Positions 3,396 through 62,533 of a stretch of DNA of 64,000 nucleotides are shown piece after piece; positions within the stretch are counted from its first letter, which is position 1, and the number at the start of each line of letters is the position of its first letter. The notes under the pieces are model-generated. The model saw only the letters and a program-made list of their open reading frames with translations. It made no database searches and was not told the DNA's origin. The stretch covers positions 46,249-110,248 of the IMG/VR virus record IMGVR_UViG_3300047444_000617. One strand, given 5' to 3'. The translations under genes were made by a program, and so were the position numbers. The DNA is from a virus.

Positions 3396-3785
3396 TTACT
3401 TCGTGGCGGTCGGAGTTACGTCCGTCGTGTCCTTCGGGCACGGAATGGTCACGTGCGCGGAGTGGGTGTACTTGAGTCCGTTCACGACCGCGTAAGGCGT
3501 GTCCGTGGATGTGGGCGCCGGGGACGGACCGACCACGAAAGTCACCTTGCACAATCCGCCGGGATTCTGCGTCGCAGGTGCCTTTACGTACTTGATGACC
3601 GTGCGCGTAGGTTCCGGCGAGACGTCCGAAGAGAAATCCGATACGGATCTGGTGGTCTCCTGTACAGAAATTCCGATATGAAGTCCGCCAGAAGTCTGGT
3701 TCGGAATGCTAGCGATTCCGACTGCGGGAATGGCGACGAGAACTGCTGCGGCTGCTGCGGCCTTCAGGCCGTGGGGTATGGGCAT
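3396..3785 (-). CDS. secreted/membrane-anchored protein
   Basis: signal-peptide-like KAAAAAAVLVAIPAVGIA; S/T/P-rich; start likely MPIPHG at 3785. Confidence 0.6.
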   Translation of the reverse strand: MPIPHGLKAAAAAAVLVAIPAVGIASIPNQTSGGLHIGISVQETTRSVSDFSSDVSPEPTRTVIKYVKAPATQNPGGLCKVTFVVGPSPAPTSTDTPYAVVNGLKYTHSAHVTIPCPKDTTDVTPTATK

Positions 3786-3835
3786 AATCCGACTCCAATA
3801 TCCTGCGGAAGAGTGAGAGGTACCTGCGGTATTTT

Positions 3836-3991
3836 CTACCCGCCGAGAAGCACCGTACCGAAGCCGTCGCAGTGCACGCAGTCGGCCCTGTCGCGGTCCT
3901 CCCCCGTGCCGTGGCACCGCTTGCACTCGACCTCGACGTCAGCGTCCTCGTCGCTGTCGGCGGAAGACACTGCATTCACGTACGTGCTCAT
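3836..3991 (-). CDS. small DnaJ-type zinc-finger protein (51 aa, not in ORF track)
   Basis: MSTYVNAVSS...CKRCHGTG...CVHCDGFG, two CxxCxGxG repeats. Confidence 0.7.
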   Translation of the reverse strand: MSTYVNAVSSADSDEDADVEVECKRCHGTGEDRDRADCVHCDGFGTVLLGG

Positions 3992-4000
3992 GAGAAGTAC

Positions 4001-5542
4001 TTACTCTCCCTGTTCGTTGAAGAAAGTTGGTACATCGACGACCTCAGCGTCGATGAATCCGCTCGACTGCTCGATCATCCGGTCCGCTGACATCGGACGG
4101 TCGAGCGTTGTCATCTGCTCCCCCGCGTCCCGCCCGAAGATCCGGCTGATCATCCCCGCCTGGGCGCCGTTCCCCTTGGCTTCCAGTTTCACGGAGAAGC
4201 CCTCCTGCTCCAGTTCGGTCTTGACCTTGACCAGTTTCTGAAGCCGGTCGATCTCGCCGGACAGGTTCGGATCCGCGTATCCGCCGGTCATGTCCTCGAC
4301 CATCTTCATGAAGAGCACCCGCTGCGCCTGCATCTCGATGAGCGAGTTCTGCAGCGACTGCATCTGCTGCTTGCTCTTCACCTGTACCGGGATGTCGTAC
4401 GCGCAGTTGCTGTGCTGGTCGTACGCCGGGCACTTCGAGGACAGGAAGCAGGAGGAGCACTGCCGCATGGACTGGCTGCGCACCGTGACCAGGGGGACGT
4501 CACGTTCCTTGTTGAGCCCGTCCTCGGGGTCGGTGTAGGTCTCCTTCTCCTGCACCAGGCCGATGACCGGCAAGTTGGTACGCGGCCGGTCCTTCCTGGG
4601 CATGGGAGTTGATACGCCGTTGAGCGGTTCGGAGTCCGCCGTACCAACTTCACCCCCCTGCAATTGAGCGAAACCGGAAAGTAGCCCGGAGGGGGAGGTA
4701 GTAACTGCTTCGGGTGAGTTCGGGCGGTGCTGCTCGATGGAGGCCGCCAACTGCTGCCACGACCAGATGGTGAAGCGCAGGACCTCGTCGTTGTCGCCGT
4801 CCTCGATCTTGTCGGCGTCGAAGCCCGCTTCTATGAATAGCGTGCGGTGCCTCTTTCGTGCCTGCTCCTTGTACTTCTTCGGGTAGCGCTTCAATTCCCG
4901 GCCGGTCCACACAATGGTGTCCCCGTATTGGCTGGGGGAAAGCCAGGAGGTCGACGCCACGCTGTCCCAGGTGACGGCTGCCATTTCCGCTGGCTTCGTC
5001 ATGGCGACGCCGTGGAGCAGCGTGCCGTATTTCCTGGTGATCTCGTTGAGGACCGGTGTGAGATTCCGTCCGTCGAGATCCGTCTGGGTAACTCCGACGC
5101 GCTTGTATCGCTGGGCGAGGCGGTCGAGTTCTTCGACTCCCCATTCCGCGTGCCATATGGGAAGGAATTTGTCTTCCGGGATGTCCTCCCAGAAGTCCTC
5201 CCGCATTGCGGCTATCCATTCGCGTCCGAGAACGACCGCGTCGAACTCGGACACCATATGAAGCGAGTCGATGTTCTGCTGGACGAACGCCATGTAGTGC
5301 GCGGCGATTTCCTTCAGTTCAGCGACGGAGTACTTGTCGTCCTCGGCCTTGTTCACCGTGTAGGCGCCGGAGTCCAGGAACACCTTCTGGTTGGGCAGGT
5401 AGTGGTCCTGGATCAGCCAGGGCCTGGAGAACTTGGTGCGTCGCCGCAGCCCCATGTACGACAAGGAGACGTTCTCCACGCCTTCCTCGGCCAGCATCTT
5501 CCGCCAGCCTGGAATCTCAGAGCCTCCCAGAAAGAGGTGCAC
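4001..5542 (-). CDS. TGT/DpdA-like TIM-barrel protein with C-terminal Cys-rich domain
   Basis: FLDSGAYT, LPIWH, LHG, DSVASTSW motifs; CxxC-x5-C-x8-C cluster. Confidence 0.5.
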   Translation of the reverse strand: MHLFLGGSEIPGWRKMLAEEGVENVSLSYMGLRRRTKFSRPWLIQDHYLPNQKVFLDSGAYTVNKAEDDKYSVAELKEIAAHYMAFVQQNIDSLHMVSEFDAVVLGREWIAAMREDFWEDIPEDKFLPIWHAEWGVEELDRLAQRYKRVGVTQTDLDGRNLTPVLNEITRKYGTLLHGVAMTKPAEMAAVTWDSVASTSWLSPSQYGDTIVWTGRELKRYPKKYKEQARKRHRTLFIEAGFDADKIEDGDNDEVLRFTIWSWQQLAASIEQHRPNSPEAVTTSPSGLLSGFAQLQGGEVGTADSEPLNGVSTPMPRKDRPRTNLPVIGLVQEKETYTDPEDGLNKERDVPLVTVRSQSMRQCSSCFLSSKCPAYDQHSNCAYDIPVQVKSKQQMQSLQNSLIEMQAQRVLFMKMVEDMTGGYADPNLSGEIDRLQKLVKVKTELEQEGFSVKLEAKGNGAQAGMISRIFGRDAGEQMTTLDRPMSADRMIEQSSGFIDAEVVDVPTFFNEQGE

Positions 5543-5605: not shown

Positions 5606-6286
5606 TTACTTCTTGAGCGGCTTGACGGCGCTCGCGGGGAACAGGCCGGGCTGGGTGACGCGCGGCTTGCGGGCGGCCGTCGACTTCGGCTTGACCGCCT
5701 TGGGGCCCTCGCTGGCGGCCAGACCGAACTGCTGTGGGGCGCGGACCTGGCTCGGGCCGAACAGACCCTTCTGCACGGCGCGCTGCGGCGCCTTGGGAGC
5801 AGCCGGTGCCGGAGCCGACGGCTTGGCGGGGGCGGAGTACGGCTTGTCGAACTCGCGCAGGTCCTGCACCTGCGAGGGGTGCGGGGCGGCCATCGGTGCG
5901 CTGGTGTGGGTGCTCGGCCGGTTGAAGGCGTTGTGGAAGTCCTCCCACGCGCCGCCCGACGGCTTGCTCTGCGCCTGGATGGAGTCCATCCGGGCGTTGA
6001 AAGTATGAAGGAGGTCGGAGGCTGCGGCGCTGTGCTTGGCCTGCCAGGTGTCGGCGGAGCGGCTGAACGACTTGCCGACCTTCTGCACGTCGCCGCTGGG
6101 GGTCGAGGAGGGGGCCTGGGTGGGCGCCGGGGAACCCTTCGGGCCCGGTCGGCGGCTGGGGGTCCTGGCAGGGTTCTCCAGGGCGCTCAGGCGGTCCTCG
6201 ACGGAGCGCTTGCCGTGGAACTGCAGCGGGTGCAGGTAGCGGTCGCGGAACTGGGTGGCTATGGAGTGGAAAGCGAAGGCGCTCAT
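5606..6286 (-). CDS. hypothetical basic P/A/K-rich protein
   Basis: start MSAFAF overlaps upstream stop (ATGA). Confidence 0.65.
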   Translation of the reverse strand: MSAFAFHSIATQFRDRYLHPLQFHGKRSVEDRLSALENPARTPSRRPGPKGSPAPTQAPSSTPSGDVQKVGKSFSRSADTWQAKHSAAASDLLHTFNARMDSIQAQSKPSGGAWEDFHNAFNRPSTHTSAPMAAPHPSQVQDLREFDKPYSAPAKPSAPAPAAPKAPQRAVQKGLFGPSQVRAPQQFGLAASEGPKAVKPKSTAARKPRVTQPGLFPASAVKPLKK

Positions 6287-8143: not shown

Positions 8144-8530
8144 TTACATCTTGAGGGCGGCGCGGAGCCGGGCCTCCTCGGCCTGCCGCTGCATGGCGGC
8201 GCCCGCCATGATCATCTGCTGCTGGGTGCGCTGGGCGGTCTCCATGGCCTGGATGTCCTTCTGCACCACGGAGGCCGCACCGTAGATGTCGTCGAAGGTG
8301 GCGCCTCGGTCCAGCACCAGGTCGAGGGCGATGGCGAGGTTGGCGTCCGCCACGACGGCGCCGTCCTTGCCGACGACGACGAGGAACGCGGTGGTGACGC
8401 GGGTGCCCGTCTCCTCGGCGGTGGGCGGGTTGTCCTCGGCCATCTTGGCCAGGGCCTGCTTCTGCTCGTCGGTGAGGTCGGTATGAAGCGGGGTGCTGGT
8501 GGTCTGGCCGAGGATCGGGATGTCAGTCAT
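8144..8530 (-). CDS. hypothetical protein
   Basis: ORF with GGAG RBS. Confidence 0.7.
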   Translation of the reverse strand: MTDIPILGQTTSTPLHTDLTDEQKQALAKMAEDNPPTAEETGTRVTTAFLVVVGKDGAVVADANLAIALDLVLDRGATFDDIYGAASVVQKDIQAMETAQRTQQQMIMAGAAMQRQAEEARLRAALKM

Positions 8531-9147: not shown

Positions 9148-10146
9148 TTACTTGCCGGTGGCCAGGTAGCGGCCGAGCAGGACGTAGGAGTCCCCGCCCG
9201 TCGCGCCCTGGATCGCGACCTGCTTGCCGTTGATGACGACCTGGCCCGCCTTGGCGTGCGTGTAGCCCAGGGCGGCGTTGGCCGGACCGCCGACCGCGAC
9301 GACGACGTCACCGGCAGCCAGAGCCGCCTTGGCCACGTCCACACGGCCGGTCGAGACGGCACCCTTGGGCTGGAAGGCGTCGGTTGCCGCCGCTGCCGTC
9401 AGGGTGTCGACAGCCTCGCCGAAGATGACCATGGTGTACGCCTTCGTGGGAGCAGGGGTAGGTGCGGGAACGGGCTTGGGGGTCACGGGGATGACCACCG
9501 GCGGCTTGTTGATGACCGGGACCGGGACGGGCTTCGGCTTGGGAGCCGGAATGGCCAGGGCGGCCCAGGTATGAAGGTCACCGTTGAACATGTCGTTGTC
9601 CAGGCCGCCGACGATGCCGTACTGGTGCAGCGTCCACACCTTCCACGGCCCGATCCTGGGGTGGCCCGCCGGGTTGGCCGGGTCGGCGATCCACAGCGGG
9701 TAGGACGTCAGGACGGCCTTGTTGGCCGCCGAGCACGCGGCGTAGACGTTGGTCATCCAGTACTCGTTGACGTACAGGATGGGAGAGGCACCGGTCTTGG
9801 CCTTCACGTGCGCCAGCCACCGCAGTGCGTACTCCGCCCGCTGGGTCCACGAGCCCTGATCCCACTCCAGGTCCAGCACCAGCACATCGCCGATGACGGC
9901 CTTGGCCTTGGACAGGAAGTAGTCGGCTTCCTTGATCGGGTCGTTGGCGGGGTGCGCGAAGTGGTAGTGCCCGATCGCCTTCTTCGCCTTGCGCGCCGCA
10001 GCCACGAACGTGTCGTGGTCCGGGTCGTGGAAGGTCAGGCCCTCGGTCGCCTTGGCGACGACGAAGGCGTTGCTGCTGCTGGCCACCGCAGCGAGCACCG
10101 TCTTGGAAGCGTTGACGTTCGCGACGTCGACACCGTGGAGAGACAT
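9148..10146 (-). CDS. GH25 muramidase endolysin with Pro-rich linker and C-terminal binding domain
   Basis: GVDVA, KATEG, GHYHFA, LDLE, LWIA, LHQY, LDNDMFNG motifs. Confidence 0.9.
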   Translation of the reverse strand: MSLHGVDVANVNASKTVLAAVASSSNAFVVAKATEGLTFHDPDHDTFVAAARKAKKAIGHYHFAHPANDPIKEADYFLSKAKAVIGDVLVLDLEWDQGSWTQRAEYALRWLAHVKAKTGASPILYVNEYWMTNVYAACSAANKAVLTSYPLWIADPANPAGHPRIGPWKVWTLHQYGIVGGLDNDMFNGDLHTWAALAIPAPKPKPVPVPVINKPPVVIPVTPKPVPAPTPAPTKAYTMVIFGEAVDTLTAAAATDAFQPKGAVSTGRVDVAKAALAAGDVVVAVGGPANAALGYTHAKAGQVVINGKQVAIQGATGGDSYVLLGRYLATGK

Positions 10147-10151
10147 CTGAT

Positions 10152-10862: not shown

Positions 10863-12116
10863 TCAGAACAACCTCTGCTGGCCCGGGTGGACCTCGGTAT
10901 GAAGCCCGTTGCCCTTTCCGTAGGAGTTCAGGGAGGAGTCGTGGTTGTCTCCCCGTCGGCGCTTTTCCTCGCTCCACTGCGCGGACTGCATGTTGGTCAG
11001 CGAATTGAGGCCGCGCTCCGTCATCACCTTGCGGGCGACGTGGTCGTGGAAGGCGTGGATTCCCTTGATGCCCATGTAGGCCTCCTGGGACTCGCTACCC
11101 TTCTTGCTCTCCAGGTGCGGGGCGAAAGCGCCACCGCCGGAGTGCGTGTCGGATACCCAGAACTGCGACGAGCCGTGGGGGTCGACCCACGAGTTGTGAT
11201 AGGCGGAGACCTTCTCACCGGCTGTCGGCTTCCACGCGTCGGACAACTTCTCGCCGCCCAGGACCTTGTGCGTGACGTCGATGGCCAGCGCGTGGTTTCG
11301 CGGGTAGCCGTTGGCCGGGTACGCGCGGGTGTCCCCTTCCTTCTTCTCCAGTTTCGTGAACTGCTTGCCGCTGCGGGCGGTGACGGTCTTCTCGACCTTG
11401 TCCTCGCGCGGGACGTAGTAGTCGGGGTGGTAGTGGTACTCCTCGCCGGTGCGGCCCGACTTCGCCCACTGAATCGCGTGGGTGGCTGCCTCGTCGTTGG
11501 GGTAGACCGCCCTGCCCGTCTCCTTGTCCGGCCGCACGAACACGTTCTGCGGGGACGTGATGGCGTTGGCGGCGGCCTGCACACCGAACGGGACGCCGTT
11601 GTTCTTCGCCGACGTCTTCAGCCGCGCACGCGGGCTCAGGGAGCCGTTGCGGGTGTGGTCCTCGGCCGGGCTGTAGAAGGAGTCGTGGTGCCCGCCCTCG
11701 TGGTCGTACGCGCGGTCGACCTGGGCACCCAGAGCGCGGTGAGCCGACTCGGGGGTGACGCCGAACTTCGCGGCCGAGCGCAGCACGCGGGCCTGCTCGT
11801 GCGGCGCGAAGTCCTCCCACCGGCGATTGACCGGCATCATGTCGCGCGTGGGGTTCATGGTGTGCTGGCCGTGCCACACGTCCGACCCCTCCGGCCCGGC
11901 CAGTTCCATCTGGCCGTGCAGGTTGGGAGCCTTGTCGGTGTTGCCCATGAGCCGGTACGACTGCCGTGGGCTGGCGGCGGCCCCCGGCTTGTCCTGGATG
12001 GTCTGGAAGCGCTCGGGGTGCGCGCCCTCGAAGGACACGCGCTTGACGGTGGCGTCCTTGACCGTCTTGTTGTAGACGCGGGTCTCGGCCGCCTTCTCCG
12101 CTGGGGTCTTGGCCAT
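10863..12116 (-). CDS. phage protein, DUF7178/HhH-glycosylase-like
   Basis: AITSPQN...KVSAYHNS...VSDTH...MQSAQW pattern. Confidence 0.4.
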   Translation of the reverse strand: MAKTPAEKAAETRVYNKTVKDATVKRVSFEGAHPERFQTIQDKPGAAASPRQSYRLMGNTDKAPNLHGQMELAGPEGSDVWHGQHTMNPTRDMMPVNRRWEDFAPHEQARVLRSAAKFGVTPESAHRALGAQVDRAYDHEGGHHDSFYSPAEDHTRNGSLSPRARLKTSAKNNGVPFGVQAAANAITSPQNVFVRPDKETGRAVYPNDEAATHAIQWAKSGRTGEEYHYHPDYYVPREDKVEKTVTARSGKQFTKLEKKEGDTRAYPANGYPRNHALAIDVTHKVLGGEKLSDAWKPTAGEKVSAYHNSWVDPHGSSQFWVSDTHSGGGAFAPHLESKKGSESQEAYMGIKGIHAFHDHVARKVMTERGLNSLTNMQSAQWSEEKRRRGDNHDSSLNSYGKGNGLHTEVHPGQQRLF

Positions 12117-14240: not shown

Positions 14241-14587
14241 CGGTCGTACTCCCGATCACCGTAGAGAGGCATGCGGACACCCTCGGGGATGAGTCCGTGC
14301 TCGGGCTTGTCCACCAGAACCCCTCGCACCGACCAGTAGCAGTTGTCCATCGGGGCGAAGGTCCGGCTGTGGAAATCGCGCAGCACCACGGTGTCGACGT
14401 GGTGGTAGTGGATGGTCGGCGGGATGAGCCAGTCCGTGGTGTCATTCCCGTGCCGGTCCAGCATCTCGTTCAGCGCCGCGATCTTCTCCTCGGGAGCGGG
14501 GTGGCCCTTGTGGACCCAACCCACTGCGTACCCCTTGGTGGATCCGCCGTTGGCGATGCCCTTGTACGCGGTCATGTATCCGTCCAC
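14237..14587 (-). CDS. hypothetical protein
   Basis: coupled ORF. Confidence 0.6.
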   Translation of the reverse strand: MDGYMTAYKGIANGGSTKGYAVGWVHKGHPAPEEKIAALNEMLDRHGNDTTDWLIPPTIHYHHVDTVVLRDFHSRTFAPMDNCYWSVRGVLVDKPEHGLIPEGVRMPLYGDREYDR

Positions 14588-14590
14588 CGC

Positions 14591-15193
14591 TCAGGCCTGG
14601 GCCAGGATCTCGTGCACCTTGGTATGAAGGTCCTGGAGGTCCCCGTCGTTGACCAGGTGGGAGTCGAACCACTTGTCGGGCAGTTCCTTCTCCGACTTGT
14701 GGTCGTTGACGGCGCCGTAGCCGGGCCGGGTGATCTTGATTAGCAAGCCCAAGCGAGAGTCGATGGCCTGGTGCTCGTTCTCGAACCGCAGGTCGGTGAA
14801 GACGTAGCGCTTGCTCTTGTCCAGGCCCTTAAATGCGGCCTCGACCCACACGTCCTGGCTGATCATCTCCCGGCCGACCTCGGTGCCCAGCACCTGCAGC
14901 ATGCGGCGGATCTCGTCGTAGGTGCGCTTGGCGTCCTCCCAGCCGATCTCGTCCACGATCTCCTGCAGCCGGAAGTCCCGGCCGTAGGAGTCGGACAGGA
15001 TGACGGGGTTGAGGACGTACAGGGCCTCGCGGAGGGTATCGGCGAAGGCGACTCGCTCGTACCCGTACTCGGTCAGGATCCGGGCGACGGCGTCCTTGCC
15101 GGTTCCGGGGTATCCGTGGAGGCCGATGAAGCCGGGCAGCCACTCCAGGATGACCTGGGGAAGCCTGTCGGTGGGGGAAAGCGTGGTGCTCAC
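14591..15193 (-). CDS. deoxynucleoside monophosphate kinase (T4 gp1-like)
   Basis: GYPGTGKD P-loop, FADTLRE, RRMLQVLGTEVGR, TDLRFENE. Confidence 0.85.
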   Translation of the reverse strand: MSTTLSPTDRLPQVILEWLPGFIGLHGYPGTGKDAVARILTEYGYERVAFADTLREALYVLNPVILSDSYGRDFRLQEIVDEIGWEDAKRTYDEIRRMLQVLGTEVGREMISQDVWVEAAFKGLDKSKRYVFTDLRFENEHQAIDSRLGLLIKITRPGYGAVNDHKSEKELPDKWFDSHLVNDGDLQDLHTKVHEILAQA

Positions 15194-19590: not shown

Positions 19591-19934
19591 TACCACGGCA
19601 GGATCTCCTCGGCTTCCGCACTCGGGTGCGCCAAGGTATGAAGCGCGAGAAATGTCTCTTCGGACATCGTGATCCAGTTCCTTCCACTGGCCATCTGAGT
19701 GCCGAAGAGCATTTCCCTGCCGTCGATCAGGGCCTGCTTCTCTGCGGTTATCAGTTCTTTGTCCTTCAGGGAGTACGAGCCCTTGCTGGTGACTTTGTAC
19801 TCGATGGAGTAGTCGGGGGTCCTGACATCGTTCTTCCGGACCCAACCATTTCCACTACCGGCGTTCACCGTCCCGCCGAGAAGTTTCGCTCCTCGCCTCT
19901 CCTGCGCCTGGCTCTTCTTCAACATGTCCGCCAT
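19590..19934 (-). CDS. resolvase-like PD-(D/E)XK nuclease
   Basis: SQAQERR...GSGNG...KNDV...IEYK. Confidence 0.7.
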   Translation of the reverse strand: MADMLKKSQAQERRGAKLLGGTVNAGSGNGWVRKNDVRTPDYSIEYKVTSKGSYSLKDKELITAEKQALIDGREMLFGTQMASGRNWITMSEETFLALHTLAHPSAEAEEILPW

Positions 19935-36469: not shown

Positions 36470-36513
36470 TTGCCCGCCCTGCCAAGGCGGTAAGTATGAA
36501 GCGGTAGCGGCAT
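36466..36513 (-). CDS. 15-aa leader mini-ORF MPLPLHTYRLGRAGN coupled to the initiator
   Basis: TGA overlaps TTG start (TTGA); CTTCATAC in LHT frame. Confidence 0.5.
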   Translation of the reverse strand: MPLPLHTYRLGRAGN

Positions 36514-49452: not shown

Positions 49453-50207
49453 CGCCCGCCCTTTCCACTCGAACCACCGGCGAAGGAGTCCGGAGTCACA
49501 CCGGCAGGCAGCGAGCCGAAGGCCTGGAACTCGCTGTTGCCCTTGGGCTTCGGGAGCAGTTGCAAGGTGATGGACACCTGGCAGCGGGACGGAATCATCT
49601 GCTGGGTCCAGTGGGTGTACTGGATATCCAGTTCCTGGATGACCCCGTAGTAGTTCAGCGTGTCGCCGATGATGACGTACACGGGGACATAGAGCATCGG
49701 CCCGGCCGCGTCGAAACTGAACTGCCCCTGCCGGAACGACTTGGAGGAGTCTCCTGTGGCCGCGTTTCCCGTGCCGGTCACGTCCACGGAAGCGGAAATA
49801 CCCGTGATCTTGTAGAGCAGGGAGATGTCCCACCCGACACCGAGCGCCGGAACGAATACGCTTTCCGCGCCCGACACCCGCGAGGAGTCCCACAATTCGT
49901 AGGTCCGGTCGAAAAGCAGGTCGAACTGCACCGTCTGCTGCAGAGGCATCAGGTAGTCCTGCGCCGTCACGTCATTCGGGTTGATCGCGTTTTCGTCCGC
50001 CAGCACCGCCGGGTTCACGGAATGGGAGGCGGCCAGGACGCTCGGGTTGTAAAGGAAGTTGCAGCGATAGCGAACCCCGCCGACCGGCTTCTCCTGAATG
50101 ATGAAGCCGCGACTGAGTGTCTTTCCGCCACCGACCAGAGACTGCAGGCCCGGCAGTTTAGTTATCCTGGGGTCGAACTTTCCGTTGTCCTGAATAACCG
50201 TAGCCAT
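49449..50207 (-). CDS. tail tube initiator (CIS tube-like)
   Basis: FLYNPS...F.LLFDRT...YTHW...P.R; start MATVIQ. Confidence 0.7.
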   Translation of the reverse strand: MATVIQDNGKFDPRITKLPGLQSLVGGGKTLSRGFIIQEKPVGGVRYRCNFLYNPSVLAASHSVNPAVLADENAINPNDVTAQDYLMPLQQTVQFDLLFDRTYELWDSSRVSGAESVFVPALGVGWDISLLYKITGISASVDVTGTGNAATGDSSKSFRQGQFSFDAAGPMLYVPVYVIIGDTLNYYGVIQELDIQYTHWTQQMIPSRCQVSITLQLLPKPKGNSEFQAFGSLPAGVTPDSFAGGSSGKGGR

Positions 50208-50293
50208 CAGGCACCCACCGCAGCAGAGACTCGGTGAGAGTTTCGGAAGTGGGGCCCAGGGCCCCACGTATGAAGTCGGTCAGTGATAGCCAT
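50207..50293 (-). CDS. 28-aa bridging mini-ORF MAITDRLHTWGPGPHFRNSHRVSAAVGA
   Basis: TAATG overlap with tape measure stop and TGATG overlap with next start; CTTCATAC in LHT frame. Confidence 0.6.
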   Translation of the reverse strand: MAITDRLHTWGPGPHFRNSHRVSAAVGA

Positions 50294-53262
50294 TAGTTTC
50301 CTGCCGCGATGAGATTGATTCGGTCGTCCTCGGCGATGGCCTGGATGAACTTCTGTGCGGCATCTCGGGCCGACTGCTGGTCCATGGCACCCTGCACCTT
50401 GACCACGACCGAACCGGCGTGGAAGTTGAGGGTGGGCGTAGCGCCCTTGGTATGAAGCCCGCCGACTCCCCCGGTAAGCGGCGTGTTCGACGCCAGCGAC
50501 TTGCGGAGAGCCTCGGCCTGGTAGGCGGGGATGATCATCTCGCCCTTGTGGACGCGCGCCGTCTGGTCGACGTCGATGTTCGCCGAGCCGACCGCGTACC
50601 CCTTGTAGGATCCGCCGTTGGCCATGCTCTTGATACCGGGGGCGTTGGCCAGGGAACCGTATCTGGATTCCTCGTACCGCACTCCGGCGATGATGTTGTC
50701 GACCGGGTTCCAGATGTTCTTGTGTCCCGGAAGTGCGTATGCGTTGAACGTGGAGTCGATCGTCTGCATGATGCCCTTGGACGGGTGTCCCGCCTTGGCG
50801 TTGGCATCGGTGTTGTTCTGCGAGCGGGGGTTTCCCCCGGACTCGTGCATGGCGATGGTGTTCACATACCGCTCATTCGCGGGCGTGTCCTGCTTCAGAA
50901 TTCCCAGGGCGCTCTTGATCCACGTCTTGAGGTTCCCGCTAGGCAGCGGGCCGGAGGCGGTCGAGCCGTTGTCAGTGTTGCGGGAGGAGTGCTGCCCGGC
51001 GCCGACACCGGACGTCAGGTTCGCTGCGCCGATCGTGGAGATCCCGGCCGCGATAGCGTCGACCTCCTCGGTGGACCCGTAGTTGCCGACGTCCCCGCCG
51101 AAGCCCATGGTGGACAGCCGGTTGGATGTCGACCCTGCGGTGTCGGAGTTGTCGTTGGCCTGGTCGTTCATGTTGCCGACCGAGCCCAAAATCCGGCGGG
51201 CGTTGGTGAACTCGCCGGGGCTGAAGGAGCGGATACGGACCGAGGCGCCTGTGTGCGGGGCTTCCAGGCACTTGCCATTGCCGATGCACAGCACCACGTG
51301 GTGCGCGGGATTGCCGACGAACATCAGGTCGCCTGCACGCACCTGGTTCATCGGGACGGCCTTGCCGACTTTCTGCTGCTGGGCAGCGGTACGCGGCAGG
51401 CTGACACCGATCTGCTTGAAGGCGAACTGCATCAGGCCCGAGCAGTCGAAGCCGGTCTGCGGGCTGCCACCGCCCCACTTGTACGGGGTGCCCAGGTACT
51501 TCTCGGCGATGCGGATAACGGCGGCTGCGGTCTTGCCAGCACCCTGGGTGCCTGTGGCAGCGGCCCCTCCCCCGCCCGCGCCGGTAGCAGCAGCGGCATT
51601 GCCGCCCGTTCCGCCACCGAAGATGCCCGCGAGCGCGCCCACACCTGCACCGATTCCCGCGCCGATACCGGTTCCGATGACAGGGACGACCGAGCCGATG
51701 GCGGCACCGGTGAGCGCGCCGGTCGCGGTGTCCACCCCGACGTGCGCCAGCTTGTTGCTGGTCTTGCCCTTGACGTGCTTGTCGATGACCTGGTTACCGA
51801 AGTGGTGCACACCCCATGCGCCCAGCCCGTACGCCCCGGCCTTGCCGAGGGTGCTCATGGACAGGTTCAGCATCCCCCCGCCTGCCCCGCCGGGCATTCC
51901 GAGCAGTCGGCTGGCCGAGCCCAGACCCCGGGCGATCCCCAGGGCGCCGAGGCCTCCGCTGATGCTGGATCCGAGCAGCGACCCCGCGCCCCCGGCCCAG
52001 CCCATGATGCCGTCCGCGCCGGACACCTGGAGTATCTTCTGCAGCGACGTGGAGAAGGCGTCCAGCGCCTTGGTGGCGCCCTGAAGCCCTTCGGTGAAGG
52101 CGTCGTTGATGTTGACGTCCTGGTTCCGCAGGGTGCCCGCACGGGTCATCAAGGTGTTGGCCGTCGAGCCGCCGATACCCATCTTGCCGAGGGCGGACTG
52201 GGCGGCGTTCTTCTGCTGCTGCGTCTTGCCGTTGTCACGCTGGTTGGCCAGGTTGGTGTACGTCTGCGCGGTGCCACCGTGCACCTGGGCCAGCAGCATG
52301 CCCTTGAGTTCGCCCTTGACCAGTTCCAGGGTGTTGGCGTCCAGGCCCCACGAGTTCAGCGACTGGTTCAGGCCGGACGCGGGGTCGTCGAGGGTCGCCG
52401 ACAACTGTGCGGCGGTCGTGACCCGCTTGAGTTCGGGGAAGCGCTGGTAGATCTGCTGGGCGATCTGGCGGGGGGTCTGCTTGCTGCCGTTCTTGATCGT
52501 CTGGATCCCGAAGCCGCGCAGGGTGTTGTAGGTGCCTGCGTTCCATGCTGCGGCCGTGCCCTGGGCGCGCTGCGCCTGGGACATCCCCGGGTTCACGTAG
52601 CCGGAGGTGCCCTTGATGTAGTTCCACTGGGTGTTGTACGCGGACGTGCCCGGCGACAGGCCCATCTGGGCCATGATCGAGTACGCCTGCGCGGCGTCCT
52701 GGGTGGACTGGGCGGTGAAGTTGTTCTTGAACGCGGCGTCGCGCAGGTTGTGCCAGGACTGGGAGGAGTACTGCGCTGCCTGATAGGCGGTGGTCTGCAT
52801 CGTGACCTGGTCGGGCAACTCCTTCTGACCCCACTTGACGATGCCCTGCAGGCCGCTCTTGAAGGTGGGTCGGCCGCCGTTGTTGGCCGCGCCCCCACCC
52901 ATGCGCCGGGTACCGGGCCCGGAGCCGCCGGAGCCTCCCTGCCCGCCGTTGTTGCCACCGCCGGTGTTGCCCACCAGGGTCAGGGAGCCGGAGGTGAAGC
53001 GGTACGTACCGCCGTTGCCGAAGCGCGAGCCTCCCTGGCCGCCGTTGGGCTGGGAGTTGGCGAAGTTGCTGGTGCCGTTCCAGACGTCTCCCAGGGCGAG
53101 GCCGATGCCCCGGGCACGGGAGACCTGCCCGATGCCGGTGTTGACCCCCTGGAGCCCGCGCGTGAGGTCGTTGATGGTACGCGTCAGGGCAGAGATCGAA
53201 TCCTGGGCCTGATTGAACCCAAGAAGCGAGCCCTGCCCTGCTACGGTGCTCTCGCTAGTCAT
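50293..53262 (-). CDS. tape measure protein with NlpC/P60 and lytic transglycosylase domains
   Basis: LGTPYKWGG...FDCSGL; HESGGNP...KGIMQTI. Confidence 0.88.
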   Translation of the reverse strand: MTSESTVAGQGSLLGFNQAQDSISALTRTINDLTRGLQGVNTGIGQVSRARGIGLALGDVWNGTSNFANSQPNGGQGGSRFGNGGTYRFTSGSLTLVGNTGGGNNGGQGGSGGSGPGTRRMGGGAANNGGRPTFKSGLQGIVKWGQKELPDQVTMQTTAYQAAQYSSQSWHNLRDAAFKNNFTAQSTQDAAQAYSIMAQMGLSPGTSAYNTQWNYIKGTSGYVNPGMSQAQRAQGTAAAWNAGTYNTLRGFGIQTIKNGSKQTPRQIAQQIYQRFPELKRVTTAAQLSATLDDPASGLNQSLNSWGLDANTLELVKGELKGMLLAQVHGGTAQTYTNLANQRDNGKTQQQKNAAQSALGKMGIGGSTANTLMTRAGTLRNQDVNINDAFTEGLQGATKALDAFSTSLQKILQVSGADGIMGWAGGAGSLLGSSISGGLGALGIARGLGSASRLLGMPGGAGGGMLNLSMSTLGKAGAYGLGAWGVHHFGNQVIDKHVKGKTSNKLAHVGVDTATGALTGAAIGSVVPVIGTGIGAGIGAGVGALAGIFGGGTGGNAAAATGAGGGGAAATGTQGAGKTAAAVIRIAEKYLGTPYKWGGGSPQTGFDCSGLMQFAFKQIGVSLPRTAAQQQKVGKAVPMNQVRAGDLMFVGNPAHHVVLCIGNGKCLEAPHTGASVRIRSFSPGEFTNARRILGSVGNMNDQANDNSDTAGSTSNRLSTMGFGGDVGNYGSTEEVDAIAAGISTIGAANLTSGVGAGQHSSRNTDNGSTASGPLPSGNLKTWIKSALGILKQDTPANERYVNTIAMHESGGNPRSQNNTDANAKAGHPSKGIMQTIDSTFNAYALPGHKNIWNPVDNIIAGVRYEESRYGSLANAPGIKSMANGGSYKGYAVGSANIDVDQTARVHKGEMIIPAYQAEALRKSLASNTPLTGGVGGLHTKGATPTLNFHAGSVVVKVQGAMDQQSARDAAQKFIQAIAEDDRINLIAAGN

Positions 53263-53429: not shown

Positions 53430-54278
53430 CAGGTCCCCCGCCGAGATCATCAGGGGGACCTCCTTACCGCACGAATCGTGCAGGAACTTGACATCATTGT
53501 ACTGAGGGCCTGGCTGCTTTTCCTCAATGGCGTCGAGGATTGAACGGCGGTCGACGATGCCCAGCGAACGCGCGAATTCCGGGTTTCCGGTCACCGCGTT
53601 CTCCGTGCCGTCGGCCTCGACGACCGAGATCAGGCAGCGCGAGAGCAGGAGGGTGTTCTGCTCGGACTCGGTGGCACGGTCGACGACCGCGAGGATCGCC
53701 TTCTGGTCGGAGCCCACGGGAAGACGCACGAAGGCCTTCCGGTTCCGGCGCAGTTCCACCTCGAAGACACGCTGGGAAGGATCCTCCAGGCGCCGGATCG
53801 GGATCTCGTCGAGGGTGACCGCCAGGCGGAACTCGTCGCCGCAGAACGGGCAGGTGTAGCGCTCCCAGACGATCTCCTCGCCGTACGTGGCGCGGCGGAT
53901 CTCCAGCAGCAGCATGTCGCGGTCGCCGAGCAGGAGGTTGTCCAGGACGGTGGGACCGGAAGGCTCGTCGCCGACGGTTACGGTGCCACATGAAAGCAGC
54001 GTGGTGATGAATGTGCCGACGCCACCGGAGCGCGCCTTGGTGATGGCTTCCTCGTCGGCCCCGGTCAGTTCACGTACCTCGGCGTCGTAACGCGCGTTGG
54101 TGAAGTCGCCGCCCAAGACGTAGCCCCCCGGCAGGCGGAACATGCCTCCTGCCGGGGGTGCGATCTCGGGCTTCTTGACCTCTTCGCCCCCGGCAAGCAT
54201 TGCCGCGATGGCGGCGTTGGCTGCAACAGGGTTGCTGAGGGGGTTGACGTACCCCTCGGTATGAAGGTCGTTAGCCAC
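53415..54278 (-). CDS. tail assembly chaperone (T4 gp26-like)
   Basis: VRELTGADEE, GDR..LL..IR..TYG, CPFC...H.SC. Confidence 0.8.
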   Translation of the reverse strand: MANDLHTEGYVNPLSNPVAANAAIAAMLAGGEEVKKPEIAPPAGGMFRLPGGYVLGGDFTNARYDAEVRELTGADEEAITKARSGGVGTFITTLLSCGTVTVGDEPSGPTVLDNLLLGDRDMLLLEIRRATYGEEIVWERYTCPFCGDEFRLAVTLDEIPIRRLEDPSQRVFEVELRRNRKAFVRLPVGSDQKAILAVVDRATESEQNTLLLSRCLISVVEADGTENAVTGNPEFARSLGIVDRRSILDAIEEKQPGPQYNDVKFLHDSCGKEVPLMISAGDLFQGL

Positions 54279-57218: not shown

Positions 57219-58022
57219 TCACTTGAGGCCGTACCACTGGGATCCCCAGCCGCCGGTGATGAGAGTCGTCGTCATGGTGCTCAGGTCTATTGACGAAGGC
57301 AGCGAGGTCAGCCCGGAAAGCATCGACGCGAGAGTGAGATGCGGCGCGGCCAGACCGGAATTCGCGGTGACGCCACCGCCGCAGGACTTGAACTGCAGGC
57401 TTGTGGTGAAGGTGCCGTTCAGGAGAAGCGCGATGAAGTACTCCCCGGCAGGAGCGGCGTATGCGCTGGTGAAGTTCACGCTCTTCGGCGTTGCGGAACT
57501 CATGAGCGTGGAGGAGATGTCAGCAGTGGCCGCGCGAAGCGTCCCGGTGCTGTCGTAGACGCCCAGGTAGGAGTTCGTGACCGGACCGGTCGTATCGACG
57601 GCCGACAGTCCGAACAGGATGCTGTTGAGGGTGGCCGCGTGCCGCAGCAGCGCGCGGTGCAGGGTGAGTTTGCCCGGCGCGTTGGCGAGGCTCGGTGTGA
57701 CGCTGGTTCCCGCGTTGAGCGGGTTGTAGTTGGCCCACACCAGGTTGTTGTCGTCGGGCATCCAGTTGCCCACGGTATGAAGGTGCCCGGCGTCCGCGTA
57801 CAGGCCGGTGCTTCCGGCGCTGGACACGGGACCTACCGCAGTGGTCGACGTGCCGACGGCCGACTTGGCCAGGTAGGTGGCGGCGTTGGTGGTGGCAGCC
57901 GCCGCGAGGTCTGCAGCCTCCTGGGTTGCGTCGATCTTGCCCGTGTTCAGGGCGGTGAGGTCCGCGTTGATCGTCGGACCCCAGTTCTGGTCTCCGACGT
58001 TGGGGAGCGTGACGCTGGTCAT
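57219..58022 (-). CDS. virion structural/fibre-like protein
   Basis: LPNVGDQNWG.TIN..L N-terminus; beta-rich. Confidence 0.55.
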   Translation of the reverse strand: MTSVTLPNVGDQNWGPTINADLTALNTGKIDATQEAADLAAAATTNAATYLAKSAVGTSTTAVGPVSSAGSTGLYADAGHLHTVGNWMPDDNNLVWANYNPLNAGTSVTPSLANAPGKLTLHRALLRHAATLNSILFGLSAVDTTGPVTNSYLGVYDSTGTLRAATADISSTLMSSATPKSVNFTSAYAAPAGEYFIALLLNGTFTTSLQFKSCGGGVTANSGLAAPHLTLASMLSGLTSLPSSIDLSTMTTTLITGGWGSQWYGLK

Positions 58023-60566: not shown

Positions 60567-60607
60567 GAAGGGGAGGGGCTCTGGTAATCCCAGAACCACT
60601 CCCCTTC
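60567..60607 (-). terminator. terminator hairpin after capsid gene
   Basis: GAAGGGGAG.GG..CTGG / CCAG..CC.CTCCCCTTC. Confidence 0.7.
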
Positions 60608-60650
60608 CCGCGCGACTACCAACTCAGCGCAGGGACCGTGGTCCCTACAA

Positions 60651-61634
60651 TCAGTTGGTCTCCGCGATCAAAACGGCCTGGTCCGTGATCAAGCCGAGGC
60701 CCCAGATCGCATACCAGGCAAGGGCGTGCTCACGCCCAAAGTCGAGAATGCCGCCGTCCCTCAGTTCGACCGGCAGCGAGATCGCGTGGCCGAATGCGTT
60801 GTCGCCCAGGAAGATGCTCTGGTAAACCGTCTTCCCGCCGGAGTTGACGACCTGCTTGACCTGGGTGGTCTCGATGAAAACGACGTCGTTGAGGCGTCCG
60901 ATCTCACCCAAAAGGAAGTTCCCCGGGGCCGCGTACTTGGTCACCTCGATGAATTCGGGATCATCGCGCAGGCGGCGGGACTGGTGCGGGTGGACGAAGG
61001 ACACATAGGTGTCCCCGAGGCGCGGGACGTTCTTGGTCGCGAGTGTTTCCACCGCGTCCTTGACGAGGGCGGCGGTGAAATCGAACGTGCCGTCCAGGGC
61101 GTCGGTTCCGGTGGCGGCGGTGCCGTGGTCGTACGGCGAGATCGCGGTACGCGCGGTGAGGGCGTACTTGTTGTAGCCCCAGATCTTGCTGGACGCCTGC
61201 AGCAGGGTGTCCCTCGCCGACTGGTCCAGGTAGAGAGCCATGTTTCGACCCAAAAGCCGCGAAGCGGACGCCATCACGTCGTCGAACGAGGCGTTCAACA
61301 GCAGTTCGCTGACGGCCACGGCGTAGCCGTGCTCGGCGACGGTGATGCTGAACTGGGAGGCGGAAAGGGCGTTGGTCTGCATCCGAACGCCTTCGACCAA
61401 CTGGCTGGCCGAACCGAGGTTGTTGTACCTCATGAAATTGATCGTGAGGCCGGGCTGGACGCCGAGTTCGGTCTTCTTCACGGCGAATTGTTCGAAGCGA
61501 AGGATCGGCATCGACTGGAACAAGATTTCCTTGCTCCAGATGGTCTGGATGGCAGCACCAAGGGTGCTGTTGGCGCCCGAGTAGTTCGTCGGAGAAGCCG
61601 ACAGGTTCGGGGTACCAGTGATCGCGCTTGGCAT
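60651..61634 (-). CDS. major capsid protein (N4-gp56 family)
   Basis: RF.QFA, G.TINF.RY, L.EG, HP...LR.DP, GEIG...V.FIET. Confidence 0.88.
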   Translation of the reverse strand: MPSAITGTPNLSASPTNYSGANSTLGAAIQTIWSKEILFQSMPILRFEQFAVKKTELGVQPGLTINFMRYNNLGSASQLVEGVRMQTNALSASQFSITVAEHGYAVAVSELLLNASFDDVMASASRLLGRNMALYLDQSARDTLLQASSKIWGYNKYALTARTAISPYDHGTAATGTDALDGTFDFTAALVKDAVETLATKNVPRLGDTYVSFVHPHQSRRLRDDPEFIEVTKYAAPGNFLLGEIGRLNDVVFIETTQVKQVVNSGGKTVYQSIFLGDNAFGHAISLPVELRDGGILDFGREHALAWYAIWGLGLITDQAVLIAETN

Positions 61635-61669
61635 ACTTGGATTTCCTTAGTTACGGGTACTCGACCGGA

Positions 61670-62533
61670 TTACGAGTACAGTCCACGCTGGTTCTGGGCT
61701 GCCTGTCCGACGCCCAACTGGCCCCGAATCTTGGCGTACTCCGACATCGGCATCGCCGAAAGGTCGGCAAGGGAGTACGACTTGTGCCCCGGATCGGTGT
61801 CCATCGGTCCCGTGGTGGAATAGCCCGTGGGGCTCACACCGCGCATTGAGGCCCGCTGCTGAATAGCGGCCTGCTGGACCGATTCCAGGATAGCCTGGGT
61901 CTTTTCCTTTACGGTATTGATGCTCGATTCGACCTCGGCCTGGGTGTTGCCGGTGACGAAATCGAGAAGTTCCGGAGCGATGTTTTCCTGCTCCTCGCCG
62001 ACGCGGCGCTGGATGTAGGACTGCAGGGCGTTGAACTCCTGCTCCTTGGCGAAGAGCGCCCGCTCCTGTGCACGCTCCTGCTCGAACTGGGTGAACCTCG
62101 CAGTCCACTCCTGCTCCTTCTGGGCCAGGAGGTCCTTGGCGGACATGTCAGCCTCGGCCAGGGCCTTGGCCTGCGCGGCGGCTTCCTGACGGCGCTGCTC
62201 CTCCTCGGCCTGGGCGGCCTCGCGGGCGGCGCGCTGCTGCTCGATCTCGTCGAGGAACTTCTTGTTCTGGGTCTCGACGGACTCCAGCCGCTTGTACAAC
62301 TTGTCCTTCTCCTCCTGCCGCGCCCGCTGGATGTCCTCGGCGGTGAACCGGGGCTCTGCGGGGGCCGGAGGGGTGGTCGGCTCGACGACAGCGGCCGGGA
62401 TGGTGATGACGGGGTCGCCACCCTCACCAGGCTGCGGAGCGCCACCGGCGATGTTGTAGATCGGGAAGCCGTTCTTGCGGTGGCCCAGCACGGTCATGGC
62501 GGGCAGCGAGATGCCCTGGGTATGAAGCGACAT
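61670..62533 (-). CDS. capsid scaffolding protein
   Basis: coiled-coil between portal and MCP; start MSLHTQG after AGGAG. Confidence 0.75.
   Translation of the reverse strand: MSLHTQGISLPAMTVLGHRKNGFPIYNIAGGAPQPGEGGDPVITIPAAVVEPTTPPAPAEPRFTAEDIQRARQEEKDKLYKRLESVETQNKKFLDEIEQQRAAREAAQAEEEQRRQEAAAQAKALAEADMSAKDLLAQKEQEWTARFTQFEQERAQERALFAKEQEFNALQSYIQRRVGEEQENIAPELLDFVTGNTQAEVESSINTVKEKTQAILESVQQAAIQQRASMRGVSPTGYSTTGPMDTDPGHKSYSLADLSAMPMSEYAKIRGQLGVGQAAQNQRGLYS

Follow-up and report, generated by a model that had tools for sequence, protein, structure and literature searches.

The window, by which we mean the whole stretch of 64,000 nucleotides analysed here, belongs to a family of temperate Streptomyces phages in which the same octamer, followed by a small hairpin and held in one reading frame, occurs in about 40 genes. 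The phage is temperate and was found integrated in a Streptomyces genome. The window has a GC content of 65.0%, lower than the value of about 68% in the preliminary description. Gene identities were checked in part; these were the GH25 lysin, RecA, class II RNR, PolA, the DnaG-type primase, DnaB, the SNF2 helicase, the DnaC-like loader, the tape measure and the baseplate hub. The octamer is CTTCATAC in C-type genomes such as this one; close relatives, called A-type, have CTTAATAC (Leu-Asn-Thr) at the same sites, and the two are never mixed. The copies in the window, with the primase gene, are as follows (an element is motif plus hairpin).

3644..3683 (-): doubtful variant copy CTTCATAT, motif 3676-3683; outside gene calls, weak hairpin
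5222..5263 (-): variant element CTTCATAT, codon 79 of TGT/DpdA-like gene (phrog_887), motif 5256-5263
5967..6010 (-): element, codon 93 of 226-aa gene, motif 6003-6010
8465..8488 (-): element, codon 15 of 128-aa gene, motif 8481-8488; weak predicted hairpin
9553..9576 (-): element, codon 191 of GH25 lysin, motif 9569-9576; linker after catalytic domain
10880..10904 (-): element, codon 405 of 417-aa gene, motif 10897-10904
14585..14629 (-): element, codon 189 of 200-aa gene, motif 14622-14629
16548..16593 (-): element, codon 188 of 236-aa gene (homologue of BRock 'RNA ligase' gp77), motif 16586-16593
19608..19643 (-): element, codon 98 of 114-aa gene, motif 19636-19643
20059..20090 (-): element, codon 389 of 394 of recA, motif 20083-20090; TGATG stop/start overlap within hairpin loop
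21251..21283 (-): leader mini-ORF, 10 codons (MTLHTCGGCP, stop), motif 21270-21277; TGA overlaps recA GTG start
22746..22781 (-): element, codon 192 of class II RNR gene, motif 22774-22781, hairpin 22746-22772
26191..26229 (-): element, codon 14 of DNA polymerase I, motif 26222-26229; stem sequence very different in one relative
27226..27254 (-): element, codon 49 of 267-aa gene, motif 27247-27254, hairpin 27226-27246; compensatory stem variants among orthologues
28033..28062 (-): element, codon 34 of 175-aa gene, motif 28055-28062, hairpin 28033-28051; one compensatory and three U-G stem changes among orthologues
29293..29317 (-): element, codon 50 of 114-aa gene, motif 29310-29317; C-type only
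31368..31395 (-): element, codon 6 of SNF2 helicase gene, motif 31388-31395; a recent gain
31700..32665 (-): DnaG-type primase gene, CHC2 zinc finger and Toprim
32008..32053 (-): element, codon 206 of primase gene, motif 32046-32053; C-type only, A-type retaining L-H-T coded CTGCACAC
33874..33904 (-): element, codon 85 of DnaB helicase gene, motif 33897-33904, hairpin 33874-33893; C-type only, Asp-to-Ala change perfects stem
34599..34658 (-): mini-ORF (VPHEQRALHTRLRTTAERT, stop), motif 34630-34637, hairpin 34607-34626; GTG start after GGAGGA, stop overlaps next ATG
35191..35232 (-): element, codon 26 of DnaC-like loader gene, motif 35225-35232
36466..36513 (-): leader mini-ORF, 15 codons (MPLPLHTYRLGRAGN, stop), motif 36494-36501, hairpin 36474-36490; upstream of replication-initiator-like gene
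36870..36895 (-): element, codon 301 of 388-aa gene, motif 36888-36895, hairpin 36870-36887
38359..38394 (-): variant element CTTCATAT (L-H-I), codon 102 of 163-aa gene, motif 38387-38394
47516..47548 (-): element, codon 167 of 619-aa baseplate hub gene, motif 47541-47548, hairpin 47516-47539
50207..50293 (-): bridging mini-ORF, 28 codons (beginning MAITDRLHTWGPGP), motif 50268-50275, hairpin 50249-50267; overlaps upstream stop and downstream start
50434..50457 (-): element, codon 936 of 989-aa tape-measure gene, motif 50450-50457, hairpin 50434-50446
54237..54266 (-): element, codon 5 of 287-aa gene, motif 54259-54266, hairpin 54237-54257
57752..57782 (-): element, codon 81 of 267-aa gene, motif 57775-57782, hairpin 57752-57774
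62501..62527 (-): element, codon 3 of 287-aa gene after portal, motif 62520-62527, predicted hairpin 62501-62516

All 27 positions previously listed for GTATGAAG proved exact and lie on the plus strand of the window, the other strand having none, and the three CTTCATAT variants at 3676, 5256 and 38387 are also present. GTATGAAG is the top-ranked 8-mer of the window by frequency, and the reported enrichment was confirmed, with an expectation of about 0.5 copies (dinucleotide shuffles: mean 0.49, maximum 3). The gene-sense strand of the whole 110-kb phage holds 35 copies, against 6.2 on average and 10 at most when synonymous codons were shuffled within genes and the protein was kept. The LHT tripeptide was seen 33 times with about 4 expected, coded 30 times as CTTCATAC and three times as CTGCACAC. 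The octamer is under nucleotide-level selection and is conserved at orthologous sites, in agreement with the earlier claim of a dedicated cis-signal tracking the direction of transcription. Weaker preferences were observed in its flanks (G at -1, C at +8, T/G at +9). Motif orientation equals gene orientation throughout, including the single copy-bearing reverse-strand gene: the one opposite-strand copy of GTATGAAG in the whole phage is in frame inside a lone small divergent gene. Each of six complete genomes has one such copy, always in frame and at one of codons 6-12 in a small reverse gene, and these genes form two unrelated families; the gene adjoins the integrase, away from the initiator gene. 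Sites of shared orientation number 31-39 per genome, spaced in some regions at about one per 1-3 kb, and there are stretches of 17-22 kb without any copy. No gene in this window carries more than one copy, as had been stated; those in the tape-measure gene and the adjoining mini-ORF are 182 nt apart. Among in-ORF copies, 55 of 147 lie within 15 codons of an ORF end (21 expected).

The single reading frame noted in the preliminary description extends beyond the window. Every copy within its minus-strand gene calls reads CTT-CAT-AC, and across four genomes 126 of 126 in-gene copies do so in frame 0. The four copies between gene calls of the window are in frame in mini-ORFs, and the only copy with no ORF call is the variant at 3676. 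At least seven different mini-ORFs, predicted to be translated, hold 'intergenic' copies in frame, with an SD sequence, a start and a stop overlapping the next start; cistron junctions also carry copies, as do 5' leaders preceded by gaps of 125-260 nt. For the 8-mer core, frames 1 and 2 would be cheaper at the protein level, yet they are never used: peptides compatible with them (3-11 per genome) never contain the motif, and no hairpin accompanies the frame-1 near-cognates. A classical frameshift site was rejected, since no off-frame ORF or stop pattern was found 3' of the motif.

The predicted stem begins 2-3 nt (about 3) 3' of the motif, with a peak of stem starts at +11, and the hairpin is 5-9 bp long. 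The predicted fold of the 40 nt 3' of the motif is -14 to -15 kcal/mol, compared with -10 for controls (z-score against shuffles -1.2, and 0 for controls), and is favoured on the sense strand. Compensatory and U-G stem changes occur among orthologues. Because compensatory changes maintain the hairpin after the motif, the element has two parts, an in-frame CUU-MAU-AYC and then a hairpin, where M is C in this phage and A in the sister lineage. It matched no Rfam family, no description was found in the literature searched, and we know of no dedicated factor for it.

The C-to-A change is concerted across orthologous sites. The two types differ at one base only, the first of the middle codon, so CAU and AAU are both NAU codons read by G34 tRNAs; in the host, G34 is presumably unmodified, since no TGT match was found in the host assembly. 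A conserved phage tRNA-His(GUG), an odd gene, was found in 10 of 14 C-type contigs and none of eight A-type contigs, an association that may reflect one or two evolutionary events; a tRNA-Asn gene is present in all of these contigs. The phage of this window has no tRNA-His gene. When 9 unique A-type and 9 unique C-type sequences were compared, the primase showed 28 fixed A-versus-C amino-acid differences in 313 columns, 16 of them within residues 1-112, around the zinc finger, and its neighbours showed 1/416 (DnaB), 0/567 (PolA) and 1/380 (RecA). Within its 26-kb neighbourhood, no gene is linked to motif type as strongly as the primase gene; this linkage is only a lead, because genes for a HicA-like protein, Pnkp and small membrane proteins have a similar share of fixed differences. 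Two beta-4 DnaG specificity residues are absent from the fixed differences; they are Y-F in nearly all sequences shown and Q-F in this phage. The type-linked HicA-like protein has an a-b-b-b-a fold (1WHZ, probability 0.97) and, with Pnkp and Rnl1, is a candidate RNA enzyme linked to type, although its allele is not strictly coupled to motif type. An Xre-type candidate repressor has zero fixed type differences. Four things go beyond the preliminary description: the hairpin, a sister motif in A-type genomes, a temperate lifestyle, and the links with primase and tRNA genes.

We favour the reading, at a probability of roughly one in three (0.35), that the element acts on the mRNA, where the translating ribosome would meet it as a pause gate dependent on one tRNA species. 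A ribosome reading CUU-MAU-AYC and the hairpin would hold CUU in the P site and, in the A site, a His (CAU) or Asn (AAU) codon read by wobble. The stem would then start at a distance of 11 nt from the first P-site base, at the position of the mRNA entrance and helicase. Codon word and stem together would produce a programmed pause or gate, and passage would turn on the supply or state of tRNA-His in C-type and tRNA-Asn in A-type phages. Support for a ribosome-read gate comes from the exclusive use of frame 0, the in-frame copies in SD- and start-bearing mini-ORFs, the agreement of motif with gene direction, reverse-gene copies included, and the energy, +11 start, stem changes and sense-strand preference of the hairpin. 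Of the four candidates put forward earlier, a ribosome-read codon switch fits best, because the motif keeps strictly to one frame, occurs in mini-ORFs predicted to be translated and is followed by a hairpin at the distance seen in recoding signals. A tRNA reader is supported by the retention of NAU codons and the confinement of tRNA-His(GUG) to C-type contigs; the idea is weak for this phage, which lacks the gene, and the association may rest on one or two events only. The ribosome alone leaves unexplained the uniform middle codon within each genome and the joint switch of all sites, so a type-specific reader is needed. CUU, AY and the less strict flanks resemble a nucleic-acid binding site, and a pause gate does not predict the primase linkage. 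In bldA/TTA control in Streptomyces, expression of a gene set hangs on one codon and one tRNA. A tRNA-dependent gate would share this dependence and the host genus, but its unit is three codons plus a hairpin, and His and Asn tRNAs are essential general tRNAs. In Cluster K mycobacteriophages, translation of some of the phage genes is likewise linked to repeated short words of set orientation, the start-associated sequences; these contain the ribosome-binding site and directly precede start codons, whereas this element is translated and may lie anywhere in an ORF. Programmed frameshift sites and bacterial SECIS elements also have an in-frame codon word in coding sequence with a stem a few bases on, whose sequence varies while the structure is kept, and CUU is the classic shift-prone P-site codon of +1 frameshift sites (PMC5009743). 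Unlike these recoding signals, the element lacks an alternative-frame product or stop pattern, has about 40 copies per genome in unrelated genes and is of switchable type.

We regard it as rather unlikely, but possible, that motif and hairpin are a single-strand DNA priming signal recognised by the phage DnaG-type primase. The element would form on the template of the lagging strand (the gene-sense strand, provided that forks move in the direction of transcription), and leading-strand synthesis would begin at the one reversed copy. In the complementary-strand origin of phage G4, stem-loops and an adjoining start site recruit primase. A co-evolving protein would account for the concerted one-base switch, and one-strand polarity, exactly one reversed copy per genome and the sense-strand fold also fit. 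Primase sites share the short template word and the zinc-finger primase, and primase zinc-binding domains set template specificity and can shift it (PMC2978363), which suits the excess of fixed differences in this primase over DnaB, PolA and RecA and their position near the zinc finger; for T7 primase, 10 nt flanking the site are reported to add to binding as well (PMC12839067). Priming leaves the frame-lock and in-frame mini-ORFs unexplained, however, as well as the long copy-free gaps; known DnaG-type words are 3-5 nt long and not frame-locked, the beta-4 specificity residues do not separate the types, other genes are similarly differentiated, and the reversed copy sits in frame in an integrase-adjacent gene, not at the initiator gene. 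A transcript site for a type-specific RNA-binding protein or endoribonuclease also has, in our estimate, a low though not slight probability. It might serve to process or stabilise long polycistronic mRNAs, to terminate or antiterminate transcription with the help of a factor, or to silence transcripts and so determine the immunity type of the prophage, the frame-lock being a by-product of coding constraints. Sites for proteins or RNases typically have this design, a single-stranded AU-rich word displayed before a hairpin; the element is confined to the sense strand, also in the reverse gene, and copies occur in leaders, at cistron junctions and in excess near ORF ends; the two exclusive types of this temperate phage resemble immunity groups, and candidate RNA enzymes are linked to them. 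Against this, the cheaper frames are never used, the HicA-like allele is loosely coupled, the Xre-type repressor has no fixed difference and Rfam offers no match.

A double-strand DNA operator of the stoperator kind, an asymmetric repressor site that blocks RNA polymerase in one orientation and silences the prophage, appears improbable. To our knowledge, stoperators have not been described as tied to a reading frame or a hairpin. The earlier suggestion of such a site agrees with the polarity, the copy number and the type-switching: stoperators of Cluster A mycobacteriophages are 13-bp asymmetric repressor sites, present in temperate actinobacteriophages in tens of copies, nearly all of which face one way relative to transcription, with a motif that varies among related lineages (PMC6550527). 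It conflicts with the frame-lock and with the hairpin, whose compensatory and U-G upkeep points to a single-stranded fold; moreover, the core is just 8-10 bp, the sites lie within ORFs and mini-ORFs, not between genes, and the Xre-type regulator is unlinked to motif type. Nick sites in one strand, of the kind known from T5 and tf-like phages, or a Chi-like recombination signal are, finally, very improbable. The polarity, the local spacing and the phage-encoded RecA and exonuclease would suit them, but the octamer is not the host Chi, having about 3.4 copies per Mb per strand in the Streptomyces host genome with no enrichment or strand bias, and the frame-lock, mini-ORFs, hairpin and reversed copy within a reverse gene would go unexplained.

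The element looks like an undescribed, switchable control signal. If it acts as a tRNA-dependent pause gate, one switch would tie together about 40 replication, recombination, lysis and virion genes and the genes coupled to leader mini-ORFs, and the phage may use it for lytic gene timing or for prophage silencing.

The + strand of the window contains 27 copies of the octamer GTATGAAG and the - strand none; every copy lies at exactly the position claimed in the preliminary description. The octamer was the top-ranking 8-mer by count in the window (65.0% GC), and dinucleotide shuffles of the same sequence gave a mean of 0.49 copies. The window forms the right-hand part (64 kb) of a phage contig of 110,248 bp, in which this strand carries 35 copies and the opposite strand one, at genome position 5374. 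Codon-usage gene calls placed 156 of 167 genes on the - strand, so that the word as read on the mRNA is CUUCAUAC. The tripeptide Leu-His-Thr was observed 33 times against approximately four expected; 30 of the 33 were encoded as CTTCATAC and the other three as CTGCACAC, close to the chance number. Of the 82 CAT codons, 36 directly followed CTT. Enrichment persisted against codon-preserving controls, in which synonymous codons were shuffled within genes: 35 sense copies compared with 6.2 on average and never more than 10. A variant, CTTCATAT (CTT-CAT-ATC), contributed five to six further in-frame copies per genome with hairpins similar to those of the main form, and weak flank preferences lengthened the word to g-CTTMATAC-C-(T/G)-a-G-G, where M is C or A. 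Stretches of 17-22 kb were without any copy. Six complete or nearly complete genomes, including this phage, each carried a single antisense copy beside 31-39 in the sense orientation. The lone antisense copy sat in a reverse gene, which bears out the earlier proposal that orientation tracks transcription; it was in frame at codons 6-12 of a small reverse-strand gene between two recombinase genes, and this small gene belonged to either of two unrelated families depending on the genome.

About 40 contigs in IMG/VR encoded a DNA polymerase I (PolA) 84-88% identical to that of this phage. Each contained either CTTCATAC (C-type) or CTTAATAC (A-type), with a density near 7 per 10 kb and every copy on the sense strand, and the two forms were never mixed in one contig save for one stray copy. 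Site-by-site BLAST mapping showed that the A and C forms share orthologous positions, with at least 27 of this phage's sites present as the A form in A-type genomes, where the encoded His becomes Asn; the T-ending variant switched likewise, from CTTCATAT to CTTAATAT. Where A-type phages retained His, for example as Q-H-T or L-H-T in DnaB and primase, it was encoded by ordinary codons and the motif was absent, which indicates that the nucleotides are selected and not the peptide. In the PolA tree the A-types were nested among the C-types, an arrangement explicable by a single change, and an outgroup with a 63% identical PolA was also C-type, at lower density. At one locus of the relative G004 (sense positions 63013 and 63037), and in G007 and G008 too, the A-type element formed a doublet with members 24 nt apart.

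All copies within called genes read CTT-CAT-AC, as the single-frame claim had it: frame 0 was found for 126 of 126 in-gene copies in four genomes. This result was taken from the gene calls, GC3 periodicity having proved a noisy proxy for frame (466 of 532 sites). The peptides F-I-[LPHQR] and [SPTA]-S-Y, which could carry the word off frame through synonymous changes (3-11 per genome), never did so, and no hairpin accompanied frame-1 near-cognates such as CTTCATCC. Codon rarity was rejected as the cause of the frame-lock, since outside the motif ATA (42) and TCA (50) were about as frequent as CAT (46). TTA codons were absent from the gene calls of the whole genome. The A-type word reads TTA in the +1 frame and TAA in the +2 frame, and frame 0 alone is therefore viable for this type. 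Copies falling between genes were in frame as well, within tiny ORFs having a ribosome-binding site, a start codon and a stop that overlapped the next start.

Tiny ORFs carrying intergenic copies of the word
Before recA: MTLHTCGGCP*
Before the initiator-like gene: MPLPLHTYRLGRAGN*
After the tape-measure gene: a 28-codon bridge
In relatives: MRLHTRAVA*, VTLNTCPREGDPR* and VRRLNT*

Sites were concentrated towards ORF ends: 55 of 147 were no more than 15 codons away from one, where 21 would be expected. Rickettsia palindromic elements are mobile palindromes inserted in frame. Mobile insertion of an in-frame palindrome was rejected here because outgroup sequences aligned without gaps and the sites appeared as substitutions in existing sequence; at the PolA site, for example, LTPDRLHTVV aligned to LTPDRLEEVV in the outgroup.

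In each of four genomes, the 40 nt 3' of the word had folding energies of -14 to -15 kcal/mol, compared with -10 at random positions, and z-scores against same-base shuffles were -0.85 to -1.3, compared with approximately 0 for in-gene controls. The first stem started most commonly at +11 (31% versus 11% in controls), which is 5 nt past the MAU codon. Orthologues kept the stem while its sequence changed, from GGAGG/CCTCC to GAAGG/CCTTC or GGACG/CGTCC; in addition, one G-C pair was replaced by C-G and three C-G pairs by U-G, and at the PolA site one relative had a wholly different stem. The alignment fold of site 27247 mis-registered one-codon insertions, and its zero compensatory pairs thus fall below the by-eye count. 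At the DnaB site, an Asp-to-Ala change in the motif-bearing lineages perfects the stem (-23 versus -15.5 kcal/mol). The sense-strand fold was favored by about 0.9 kcal/mol relative to controls. From this preference and the compensatory changes, it follows that the element, comprising the word and its downstream hairpin, is a single-stranded structure of the sense strand, either as RNA or as the sense DNA strand. No Rfam family matched in the window at the gathering score, and a scan for promoter and terminator consensus sequences gave nothing beyond shuffles.

The phage is a myovirus, with genes for a tail sheath, a baseplate hub and an SPP1-type portal. Its replication genes encode DNA polymerase I, a class II RNR, RecA, DnaB, a DnaG-type primase, an SNF2 helicase and a DnaC-like loader, and it also carries a GH25 lysin, four tRNA genes, a TGT/DpdA-like gene, a tyrosine integrase, a large serine recombinase and an RNA-repair set (Pnkp, Rnl1 and RlaP). 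The ends of the contig (genome 1-100 and 110149-110248) repeat one another, implying that the assembly either is circularly permuted or carries terminal repeats; direct terminal repeats are listed in IMG/VR for three relatives. When 24 kb were compared by megablast with the phage collection, no near-identical match was returned, and the nearest named phages were those of the BRock group, which infect Streptomyces, at about 50% protein identity. The motif was not enriched in the first 50 kb of BRock (53% GC), and a polar AT-rich word of comparable kind was not found in distant relatives with 45-54% exonuclease identity. As a probe for further relatives Pnkp returned one locus only, and the exonuclease was successful.

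A relative with an 87% identical PolA was found on a 203-kb contig of Streptomyces sp. NPDC002088, with a homologous span of about 103 kb, a fall in GC at each border (about 0.72 to 0.65), and 40 sense copies and one antisense copy of the word. This prophage is a complete relative and occupies approximately 76-183 kb of the contig (C18 of that assembly, G006); its junction falls in the space that separates the serine-recombinase gene from the small reverse gene with the lone antisense element. Given this integrated relative, the phage is temperate and its host is a Streptomyces. Outside the prophage, the NPDC002088 genome contained about 3.4 copies per Mb per strand without bias (about 35 and 37 copies in 10.6 Mb).

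The uniform middle codon of each type and the concerted switch between types need a type-specific reader. Fixed A-versus-C protein differences were scored in 26 kb around PolA, using nine unique sequences per type, and a second scan followed.

Positions of genes compared between motif types
Window 31700-32665 (-): DnaG-type primase
Window 4001-5542 (-): TGT/DpdA-like gene, 513 aa
Genome 10029-10238, outside the window: HicA-like protein, 69 aa
Genome 14208-15261 (+), outside the window: reverse-strand Xre-HTH/DUF5753 regulator, then a small gene (phrog_10815)
Genome 24458-28494, outside the window: RNA-repair module of Pnkp, T4 Rnl1-like ligase and RlaP nucleotidyltransferase, near the tRNA array
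L112:5259-5344, L115:9329-9414 and L106:12645-12730 (contigs of relatives): tRNA-His(GUG)

In the primase, 28 of 313 columns were fixed differently in the two types, and 16 of these lay among the first 112 aa, the zinc-finger region. The gene formed a sharp island of linkage, with one fixed difference in 416 columns of the adjoining DnaB, none in 567 of the nearby PolA and one in 380 of RecA. Primase zinc-binding domains set template specificity, two beta-4 residues being decisive (PMC2978363); these residues were not among the fixed differences. In the second scan, a like share of fixed differences was seen in the HicA-like protein, Pnkp, Rnl1 and some small membrane proteins, and the linkage of primase to motif type is thus a lead and not proof. 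Pnkp and Rnl1 differed consistently between the types. The Xre-HTH/DUF5753 gene, a likely lysogeny regulator, had no fixed differences. The HicA-like protein was rejected as reader because its coupling to type is not strict, an A-like allele being present in one C-type genome. Its model has an a-b-b-b-a arrangement with 1WHZ as the best PDB match, and the variant element forms the last three codons of its gene (…GLHI* in C-type, …GLNL in A-type); no HicB-like partner was recognized, the next gene resembling a membrane protein. Type-linked proteins of 105 and 114 aa were set aside since both resemble membrane proteins. The TGT/DpdA-like gene was outside the set of most type-linked genes; its product matched phrog_887 ('queuine tRNA-ribosyltransferase', E 4.5e-78) and did not match the Pfam TGT model.

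A phage tRNA-His(GUG) gene was confined to C-type contigs (10 of 14, against none of eight A-type contigs), while tRNA-Asn(GUU) was present in all contigs of both types. The tRNA-His(GUG), of 86 nt, is unusual: it has C73 and an encoded G-1, and its variable arm is long, like that of class II tRNAs. It is conserved with compensatory changes. The TGT family, matched in 14 of 14 control genomes, had no match in the Streptomyces host assembly, so that G34 in the tRNAs reading NAU codons is presumably unmodified. A tRNA would fit as the type-specific reader, given the anticodon change from GUG to GUU. We infer such a reader in agreement with the distribution of tRNA-His, a case weakened by the absence of the gene from this phage.

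Frame-lock, translated mini-ORFs, the following of gene direction and the geometry of the element together point to the ribosome as reader, and we give a ribosome-read gate, a form of which had been among the earlier proposals, a probability of roughly one in three. With the wobble codon for His or Asn in the A site, CUU would occupy the P site and the stem would begin 5 nt past the A-site codon, as it does in recoding sites. CUU is a classic shift-prone P-site codon, and CUU_N resembles known +1 sites (PMC5009743). An in-frame word with structure a few bases downstream has the features of frameshifting or recoding. A classical frameshift site was nevertheless rejected: stops in the +1 and -1 frames were neither in excess nor in deficit, and the ORFs continue in frame 0. 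With no second-frame product evident, a pause or gate at the element is preferred over a frameshift. It is a more speculative step, and one we consider rather doubtful, that about 40 genes stand under a switchable translational code, in which a three-codon word with a hairpin would make translation dependent on one tRNA species and the whole set would have been re-keyed from tRNA-His to tRNA-Asn by one base per site.

Other readers were weighed against the same features. If the element were a signal read by the phage DnaG-type primase, the polarity and the type switch would be accounted for, as would the lone reversed copy, while frame-lock, mini-ORFs and the gaps of 17-22 kb would be left unexplained; we regard this as unlikely. 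Similarly improbable is a site for an RNA-binding protein or RNase, possibly setting immunity types of this temperate phage, which would explain both architecture and switch but not the frame. The many asymmetric, co-oriented sites (31-39 sense against one antisense in six genomes) recall the stoperators raised in the preliminary description. A stoperator (PMC6550527) is a site in double-stranded DNA that is not known to be tied to a fold or a frame, whereas this element has a hairpin with compensatory and U-G changes and a single frame in 126 of 126 copies, which makes such a site very unlikely. Nick sites or Chi, proposed at the same time, are the least probable of all, and the NPDC002088 chromosome, having neither over-representation nor strand bias of the word, speaks against a Chi-like signal.

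Searches of the literature library returned no description of the word; the matches listed were apparently primer or construct sequences in unrelated papers. To our knowledge, no system has been described in which a codon word in frame is joined to a conserved hairpin, recurs about 40 times across unrelated genes and switches type by one base throughout the set. Whether ribosome or primase is the reader, the question can be tested directly, since nature supplies two clean alleles, C and A, over more than 25 sites in common, and a Streptomyces lysogen is on record; the element would also be a compact, portable means of expression control in high-GC actinomycetes. Reading by the primase would make this the first long dedicated DnaG-type priming word, together with a natural specificity pair. 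A re-keyable tRNA code would amount to a tRNA-gated checkpoint or immunity type for temperate Streptomyces phages, acting at the ribosome. Should the ribosome be the reader, this would be, as far as we know, the first virus to mark a large gene set with a codon-plus-structure word, and the first case of such a word re-keyed set-wide during evolution. The element would then constitute an extra layer of phage gene control or prophage immunity, to which gene annotation is blind because the signal is hidden inside ordinary coding sequence.
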